64,000 nt of DNA from Escherichia coli (GTDB taxonomy: Bacteria > Pseudomonadota > Gammaproteobacteria > Enterobacterales > Enterobacteriaceae). The stretch lies in the NCBI RefSeq assembly GCF_016903815.1, contig NZ_CP069973.1; one strand, written 5' to 3'. This document shows positions 53,505-54,904 of this stretch, piece by piece; position 1 is the stretch's first letter; each line of letters starts with the position of its first letter. A model generated the notes under the pieces. It saw only the letters and a list, made by a program, of their open reading frames with translations, searched no databases and was not told the DNA's origin. The position numbers and the translations under genes were made by a program.

Positions 53505-54289
53505 GCCTGCACCTCCGGCGTCAATTGCCAGAGCGCATCAAGGAAATGTGGAACAAAACTGCCTGGCCCCTCGCTACTGGCGACTGCGCGTTCTCCGGCT
53601 TGTTTCATCCAGTGACAGGCAGATGCGATATTTTCCAGCGTATCGCCTGGTAGCGCACAACAGGCAGCGACAACCGCCGATAATGCACAGCCAGTTCCTA
53701 CCACTTTGGTCATTAACGGATCGCCACCGTGAATACCAATGATACGATGTCCATCGGTAACATAATCCATCTCGCCAGTGACCACGACGATTGCGCCAGT
53801 TTCCCGTGCCAGTGTTTGTGCAGCGGGTATCGCATTAGCTGCGGCGTCAGTGGTATCCACTCCCCGTCCACCATTAGCAACGCCAGCTAATGCCATGATT
53901 TCCGAAGCATTACCACGTATGGCGGTTGGCTTATGAGACAGAAGTTCCAGACAAAAACGGCGGCGATAATCGAGTGCACCCACCGCTACTGGATCAAGCG
54001 TCCAGGGTGTTTGAGAGCGTTTTGCCTGTTCAATGGCGGCACGCATCGCCTGTGCGCGTGGCTGCGTCAGCGTGCCAACGTTAATCAGCAACGCACTGGC
54101 GATAGCCGCAAACTGACTGGCCTCTTCGGTTTCGATAACCATCGCTGGGGATGCACCGAGCGCCAGCAAGGTATTGGCAGTAAAGGTTTGCACCACATCG
54201 TTGGTCATGCAGTGCACAAGAGGGGAATGTTGGTGAAAAAGATGTAACGCGTGCGCAGATTGCGCGGAACTCAGCAGGTCGACTTGCAT
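53501..54289 (-). CDS. thiM: Hydroxyethylthiazole kinase
   Basis: 262 aa; coupled to thiD. Confidence 0.9.
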
Positions 54290-54300
54290 AGTTTGCTCCT

Positions 54301-54415
54301 GCCATAACGTGAAGAAGCAATGACCTGGTGGTCCGTGACTTCCCTACGCTGGCATTATCCAGATCAGGTGATACGGGTATTTCTCAGCCTTCACGCAGAA
54401 GGGCACCCCGAGTCG
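54301..54415 (-). promoter_or_regulatory. TPP (thi-box) riboswitch in the thiM leader
   Basis: Minus strand reads ...ggctgagaaatacccgtatcacctgatctggataatgccagcgtagggaa... containing the CUGAGA and ACCUGAUCUGGAUAAUGCCAGCG thi-box elements. Confidence 0.85.
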
Positions 54416-54511
54416 TTTGATTGCGATGATAAATCGCAGAGGAGGATGGTAATGTCCAGCGCACGCGTTGTAAACGAGTAAAAACCGCAGTTTTACAATC
54501 GCGTTAATAAA

Positions 54512-54784
54512 TTATTTGATATAAGAATCCAGCACCTTCAGAACGACATCCAGATCTTCTTCACGTTTTAGCTCATCCCCCTGGTGAACGATGTGTTCCG
54601 TCAGATGACCTTTAATCACTTCCCGCATCAGACCGTTTACCGCGCCACGGATAGCAGCAATCTGTTGTAAAACTGCAGCGCATTCGTGCGGCTCGTCGAG
54701 CATTTTCTTGAGCGCCACGACCTGGCCCTGAATCTTACTGGCACGCGCTTTCAGTTTCTGTTTATCACGGATGGTATGAGACAT
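54512..54784 (-). CDS. rcnR: Ni/Co-responsive repressor RcnR
   Basis: 90 aa CsoR/RcnR family; divergent from rcnA. Confidence 0.9.
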
Positions 54785-54832
54785 GGCAACACCTGGTTAA
54801 TAAGAATATGAAAAATCATAGCACTATTAATC

Positions 54833-54867
54833 TACTGGGGGGTAGTATCAGGTACTGGGGGGGAGTA
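54833..54867. promoter_or_regulatory. Tandem RcnR operator motifs (TACT-G6/7-N-AGTA) in the rcnR-rcnA intergenic region
   Basis: tactggggggtagta (54833..54847) and tactgggggggagta (54853..54867). Confidence 0.75.
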
Positions 54868-54904
54868 GAATCAGATTGCCGAATTAATACTAAGAATTAT
54901 TATC

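Follow-up and report, generated by a model that had tools for sequence, protein, structure and literature searches.

The thiM TPP riboswitch of an Escherichia coli chromosome: aptamer, expression platform and surroundings

Described TPP riboswitches and the thiM locus

Many Firmicutes TPP riboswitches act through an intrinsic terminator in the leader. The terminator-type elements of Bacillus and other Firmicutes share their aptamer family with those of Escherichia coli, whereas the intrinsic terminator is theirs and has no counterpart in the leader described here. Within E. coli, the thiC and thiB/tbpA riboswitches belong to the same Rfam family as the thiM element, recognize the same ligand and also control translation initiation; effects at the mRNA level have been reported for them (PMC5234074, PMC11487190, PMC10578472), and a regulatory pause at the start site reportedly serves thiC (PMC5234074). 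All are paralogous to the one at thiM, lie at other loci (outside the DNA analysed here) and have other expression platforms.

The closest described system is the thiM riboswitch of E. coli K-12 (PMC1920254, PMC2018614, PMC5499598), for which TPP binding and solved structures have been described (PMC1920254, PMC2018614). Chemical probing of the K-12 RNA indicated that in the free form nt 83-86 pair with the anti-Shine-Dalgarno (anti-SD) stretch, and that in the bound form a helix of nt 108-125 sequesters the Shine-Dalgarno (SD) nt 126-129 (PMC1920254; in this older numbering nt 1 corresponds to position 54424 of our sequence). Furthermore, translational repression by TPP exposes a rut-like region of K-12 thiM and leads to Rho-dependent termination, for which codons 20-34 are required: TPP represses a translational fusion that has only 6 codons, transcriptional fusions require codons 20-34 as well as Rho, and a TPP-dependent, bicyclomycin-sensitive drop in mRNA has been shown (PMC5499598).

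We analysed a stretch of 64 kb (henceforth the window) in which an earlier note, made from the letters alone, had placed an apparently intact thiM TPP riboswitch on the minus strand of 54301-54415. By its sequence the window is E. coli chromosome, with the element at the canonical thiM locus. Its gene order (yegX-thiD-thiM-rcnR-rcnA-rcnB-yehA) is that of K-12 MG1655, in which the riboswitch occupies the same locus (rcnR, leader, thiM, thiD, yegX) with the same strand arrangement and the same length; read 5' to 3', the minus strand of 54100-54600 runs from the end of rcnR through a spacer into ...CAAUCAAACGACUCGGGGUGCCCUUCUGCGUGAAGGCUGAGAAAUACCCGUAUCACCUGAUCUGGAUAAUGCCAGCGUAGGGAAGUCACGGACCACCAGGUCAUUGCUUCUUCACGUUAUGGCAGGAGCAAACUAUG... 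(coordinates of all features in Table 1). We are practically certain that the element at 54439-54287 is the E. coli thiM TPP riboswitch itself, neither a relative nor a variant of it, acting in cis from the 5' leader of the thiM-thiD transcript; none of the observations contradicts this. It is thus an already known element at its expected place, among the best-characterised of riboswitches, and its description as well characterised is borne out by the structural and functional work on the K-12 sequence (PMC1920254, PMC5499598).

Table 1. Positions of the thiM riboswitch, its parts and associated features (window coordinates unless an accession is given)
Feature	Position	Strand	Basis or content
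rcnR	54512-54784	minus, co-oriented upstream of thiM	Pfam PF02583
Promoter-like site of the thiMD operon	54446..54474	minus	-35 TTTACA 54474-54469, 17-nt spacer, -10 TACCAT 54451-54446
TPP-binding aptamer (thi element)	54324..54420	minus	RF00059, 71.8 bits; identical to K-12 except at 54420
P1	54414-54411 with 54340-54337	minus	model pair list
P2	54410-54407 with 54377-54374, plus 54405:54380	minus	model pair list
P3	54404-54400 with 54391-54387	minus	model pair list
P4	54368-54365 with 54346-54343	minus	model pair list
P5	54362-54359 with 54352-54349	minus	model pair list
Linker hairpin GACC-ACCA-GGUC, between aptamer and anti-SD	54322..54333	minus	unconstrained minimum free energy (MFE) fold
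Anti-SD stretch UUGCUUCUUCA	54310..54320	minus	folding; matches probing model (PMC1920254)
SD region AGGAGCAA, core GGAG 54299-54296	54293..54300	minus	direct reading
thiM start codon AUG	54287..54289	minus	ORF list; RefSeq CDS start in identical strain 7/2
thiM, hydroxyethylthiazole kinase, 262 aa	53501..54289	minus	Pfam PF02110 (HK), E 3.1e-107
Putative Rho-target homologue	54188..54239	minus	PMC5499598 coordinates mapped: rut nt 201-210 = 54239-54230, codons 20-34 = 54232-54188
thiD, hydroxymethylpyrimidine/phosphomethylpyrimidine kinase, 266 aa	52704..53504	minus	Pfam PF08543, E 2.3e-95
Island locus of strain AR13438	NZ_CP097170.1 39363-47191		equivalent window segment ~54342-54423

The aptamer and its identity with the K-12 element

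Of all 4227 Rfam families, searched over the entire window with their gathering thresholds, two gave one match each, CyaR and TPP, so that the 64 kb contain a single TPP match. The TPP match (RF00059) runs on the minus strand from 54420 to 54324 with 71.8 bits (gathering score 54.3, E 3.6e-12), covers the model at full length (positions 1-105 of 105, not truncated) and lies on the strand of the regulated gene, so that the proposed minus-strand TPP riboswitch stood up to the covariance search by which it was to be checked. The optional stem of RF00059 (11 positions) is absent from the aptamer, 21 of the 23 base pairs of the model are canonical and P1-P5 can form; the two non-canonical pairs (54415:54336 and 54401:54390) consist of the same bases in K-12. 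Its base identity with the K-12 thiM aptamer suggests that the core at 54414-54337 would bind TPP.

Both strings of the thi-box core, as named in the earlier note, are present exactly: CUGAGA at 54387-54382 (minus) in the P2-P3 junction, and ACCUGAUCUGGAUAAUGCCAGCG at 54369-54347 (minus), where it forms P4/P5. A single copy of the combined motif CTGAGA-N(3-30)-ACCTGATC lies in the 64 kb, and 100 shuffles that preserved the dinucleotides gave no copy at all; together with the RF00059 match this places the thi-box observation far beyond chance. We give virtually no credence to the alternative that the resemblance is accidental or reflects a plus-strand feature such as the 53-aa ORF at 54320-54481, for even though this ORF overlaps the interval, the structure-aware model finds its match (E 3.6e-12) on the minus strand only, and the shuffles are devoid of the motif. 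As a candidate gene the ORF was set aside: the identical RefSeq sequence carries no CDS there, and conservation tracks the RNA helices and not the reading frame.

Numbered from the putative transcription start (nt 1 = 54439, see below), nt 1-168 differ from K-12 MG1655 at a single base, C20U (C->U at 54420), located in the unpaired flank 5' of P1. Everything from nt 21 to nt 168, that is P1-P5, the linker hairpin, the anti-SD, the SD, the AUG and the coding sequence to 18 nt, is identical to K-12. Beyond this segment, two bases differ in the upstream spacer (54486 and 54479) and six in the first 150 nt of the thiM coding sequence; none of these differences (C20U included) is expected to matter. 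At the protein level, 11 of 262 residues differ from K-12 in ThiM and 1 of 266 in ThiD. A megablast of 54250-54520 found matches in 5424 of 5426 complete E. coli genomes, and among the matches listed at least two records (strains 7/2 and CB6837) are 100% identical to the window over all 271 nt. In one of them, strain 7/2, the RefSeq record has a 'riboswitch / TPP riboswitch' feature at the corresponding place, with rcnR and thiM on either side. The description of the element as apparently intact is thereby upheld on two sides, by the K-12 bases retained in P1-P5, linker, anti-SD, SD and AUG (with 21 of 23 model pairs canonical), and by the RefSeq feature at the same position in a genome identical over the region.

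The interval originally given, 54301-54415, needs extension at both ends. It covers 92 of the 97 aptamer positions and reaches 23 nt into the expression platform; it lacks 5 nt in the model's 5' flank, and it ends a single nucleotide ahead of the SD (54300-54293), leaving out the AUG as well. A more fitting extent for the functional unit is from 54439 (the putative transcription start) to 54287.

Expression platform and control of the thiMD operon

We folded the leader both without constraint and with the Rfam helices enforced, the latter fold standing in for the TPP-bound state. With the aptamer enforced, the best fold pairs UUGCUUCU (54320-54313) with AGGAGCAA (54300-54293), and three extra pairs join 54312-54310 to 54302-54304. 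In the unconstrained fold, 54319-54300 is instead paired to the aptamer's 3' half (54354-54336), with GAAG 54342-54339 opposite the anti-SD core CUUC (54317-54314, nt 108-111 in the older thiM numbering), and the SD is partly free. In line with this, GGAG has a mean unpaired probability of 0.66 in the free 150-nt leader and of 0.00 once the aptamer is enforced; for the seven AGGAGCA positions of a 159-nt construct the values drop from 0.12-0.49 to 0.00-0.05. The anti-SD is hence able, in the folding, to pair with either the SD or the 3' strand of the aptamer, as an SD-sequestering platform does. The capacity for both folds comes directly from the computation (as do family membership, K-12 identity and gene context), and the alternative pairings that the model predicts for the window reproduce those published for K-12 (PMC1920254).

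The aptamer-enforced fold lies 5.9 kcal/mol above the unconstrained MFE, a cost that the energy of ligand binding must pay for the switch to occur, as is expected. The fold stability of the 156-nt leader, compared with shuffles, showed no excess (z -0.30); we set this measure aside as a test, since bistable riboswitches need not be unusually stable.

A scan of 54200-54900 called no terminator-like site on either strand, and the lack of an intrinsic terminator in the leader is consistent with translational and not terminator-based control. Given that many Firmicutes TPP riboswitches do work in this way, one might suppose that control is exerted mainly by premature termination in the leader, through a Bacillus-like intrinsic terminator and not through sequestration of the SD. 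We hold this to be extremely unlikely: no hairpin followed by a U-run was found on either strand of 54900-54200, a U tract is missing after the anti-SD:SD helix, and in K-12 the 6-codon translational fusion already responds to TPP, whereas the transcriptional fusions depend on codons 20-34 and Rho (PMC5499598).

SD sequestration as the preferred reading can be put as follows. At low TPP, the anti-SD region 54319-54300 would be engaged by the aptamer's 3' half (~54354-54336), so that GGAG would be left free and thiM translated. Where TPP is bound, P1-P5 would lock and the anti-SD UUGCUUCU, once released, would pair with AGGAGCAA and block ribosome binding. By homology with K-12, the untranslated mRNA would then be exposed to Rho, with termination falling roughly within thiM codons 20-40, and such termination would lower the expression of thiD as well. 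For translational repression and for Rho termination alike, the expectation comes from the literature on the identical K-12 sequence.

The gene directly controlled is thiM. The ORF downstream of the element, which the earlier note had taken to be thiM, matches PF02110 (E 3.1e-107, 262 aa), in agreement with that assignment, and the RF00059 match ends 34 nt upstream of its AUG. The thiM stop and the thiD start overlap by 4 nt (ATGA, 53504-53501, minus), which suggests translational coupling of thiD to thiM; with such coupling, riboswitch control of thiM would propagate to thiD.

The probable transcription start, 54439, was taken from the numbering of PMC5499598, which is anchored in K-12 by the RBS mutant G142C, the start-codon mutant U152A and transcripts initiated with CUGC. 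This numbering fits the window, with CTGC at 54439-54436, a G at nt 142 and ATG at nt 151-153, and it maps the G142C mutation to 54298. A consensus scan found TTTACA-17-TACCAT as the only promoter-like site, ending (54446) 7 nt upstream of the putative start; as shuffles yield ~0.9 sites, the scan alone is weak.

Further upstream, the rcnR-thiM spacer at 54478-54496 (minus; GUAAAACUGCGGUUUUUAC) can form a 7-bp hairpin, on visual reading only, and K-12 differs at 54486 and 54479, both changes weakening the hairpin. The terminator scan (54200-54900) called nothing between the co-oriented rcnR and thiM, and read-through from rcnR into the thiM leader is conceivable.

Within the thiM coding sequence, the homologue of the K-12 Rho target (54188-54239) would play the same role here, by analogy with PMC5499598. 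It is rich in C and poor in G (C 35-40%, G 10%, in 40-nt windows starting at nt 181-201) and departs from K-12 at nt 198, just 5' of the stretch, and at nt 240. Such departures could be taken as a sign that the riboswitch, recognisable as it is, is functionally impaired here, be it by the C->U at 54420 (the one substitution inside the Rfam match) or by the bases that depart from K-12 within or next to the Rho-target/termination region (nt 198, 240 and 261). We consider impairment very unlikely, because position 54420 belongs to the unpaired 5' flank of the model, the same allele occurs at 100% identity in other complete genomes, all helices, the anti-SD, the SD and the AUG are those of K-12, and the Rho-target region keeps its C-rich, G-poor composition.

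Orthologous leaders, neighbouring elements and an integrase island

For the comparison with other genera, a DNA-pattern scan (one genome per species, the pattern fixing P4/P5) retrieved at least 120 loci, among them 50 Enterobacterales loci outside E. coli with thiM directly downstream; 48 of these 50 were aligned with the window by MAFFT (49 sequences). The aptamer core of these leaders is nearly invariant, in part because the pattern fixed P4/P5, the aptamer lies 47-80 nt upstream of thiM, and a pyrimidine-rich stretch of the CUUC type precedes a GGAG SD. P1, P2, P4 and P5 never vary across the 49 leaders (P4/P5 being fixed by the retrieval pattern), and covariation is limited to P3, in which two pairs are changed on both sides (e.g. 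CCCUUC/GAAGG versus CCCCAUCG/GAUGGG). In the linker hairpin, the stem sequence changes among the Enterobacterales orthologues and the hairpin is often kept, in noisy columns with 47% of cells paired.

The architecture of linker and anti-SD varies across genera: Escherichia and some relatives have the UGCUUCU:AGGAGCA helix, and many other genera have in its place a CCGG-containing helix that overlaps the SD. In the alignment columns, 81% of cells are paired for the anti-SD:SD helix and 67% for the free-state helix, values made unreliable by indels, and whole-structure measures that count pairs or pair types did no better than shuffles over this alignment. With the aptamer enforced, a per-sequence thermodynamic model gave an SD unpaired probability below 0.1 in 16 of the 49 leaders; occlusion is clean for the window, E. 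albertii, Kluyvera-like and some other leaders, and over the 49 leaders the occlusion values did not differ from those with shuffled linkers (Wilcoxon p 0.77). Since the occlusion model fits only 16 of 49, the E. coli platform cannot be projected onto all genera with this simple model. For the window the poor fit across genera is without consequence, its platform being, base for base, the K-12 one on which the experiments were done.

For the 72-nt upstream spacer, comparison of the window with E. albertii gives 16 differences, and for the first 150 nt of thiM it gives 21; the 97-nt RF00059 match has only 2 (one in the 5' flank and one in the loop of the linker hairpin, none in a helix), and the 34 nt from the aptamer match to the AUG (linker, anti-SD, SD and spacer) have none. 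In such base comparisons with close relatives, purifying selection is visible.

The second Rfam match of the window is the CyaR/RyeE sRNA gene (RF00112, 4864-4949, plus strand, 100.7 bits, E 6.2e-19). Directly downstream of cyaR lies a P2-like prophage (~5007-28398, plus strand, probably extending further); when 5000-29000 is compared with Peduovirus P2, 88% is covered at 97.7% identity. The distance from cyaR to thiM is ~49.5 kb in the window, against ~18 kb in K-12, and the extra ~31 kb is due to the P2-like prophage.

The rcnR-thiM leader is interrupted in about 700 of the 5424 E. coli genomes that match. Strain AR13438, the one strain in which the island was examined, carries a 7.7-kb island between two direct repeats of ~81 bp that correspond to window ~54423-54342, i.e. 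most of the aptamer. The island encodes a tyrosine integrase (phrog_1), an HNH endonuclease, an HTH regulator and a DNA invertase, as well as a replication-initiator-like protein (weak matches). Each of its two aptamer copies passes the Rfam TPP threshold: the copy on the thiM side (71.2 bits) keeps the native platform and has island DNA upstream, whereas the hybrid copy on the rcnR side (61.3 bits) keeps the native thiM promoter and takes the 3' strand of P1 from island sequence. Between this hybrid aptamer, which follows the native thiM promoter, and the integrase ATG there are 66 nt. Of the 5426 complete E. coli genomes, at least 167 carry the integrase together with its junction to the aptamer (at ≥80% coverage).

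In strain PapRG-06-5 (NZ_CP048605.1 230-2503), ~2 kb are inserted directly 5' of the aptamer, between rcnR and the riboswitch, with the break at ~54423. One gene of this insert is HTH-like and a close relative of the gene that the AR13438 island carries at its thiM-proximal end, so that the insert is probably an island remnant, displacing the native thiM promoter. Some O157 genomes match the leader only from the equivalent of ~54423 onward, or from further in.

We lean towards the view that the aptamer DNA of the window (~54423-54342) is at the same time the unoccupied attachment site of a small tyrosine-integrase island. That expression of the integrase would thereby become responsive to TPP is a speculative and rather improbable extension. 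The window contains neither a tRNA nor a tmRNA gene that could serve as another integration target. Among 50,697 phage records none matched the island integrase. A literature search on an integrase island at thiM found nothing relevant, but it was shallow, and the island may already be known. Its presence at the aptamer DNA of other strains is the only item here with some discovery value; for the riboswitch itself this value is small, its sequence being essentially that of the reference strain.

Taken together, the value of the analysis lies in correct annotation: the thiMD operon of this chromosome would be under normal feedback control by TPP, exerted by a block of translation and, going by homology with K-12, by Rho-dependent termination.
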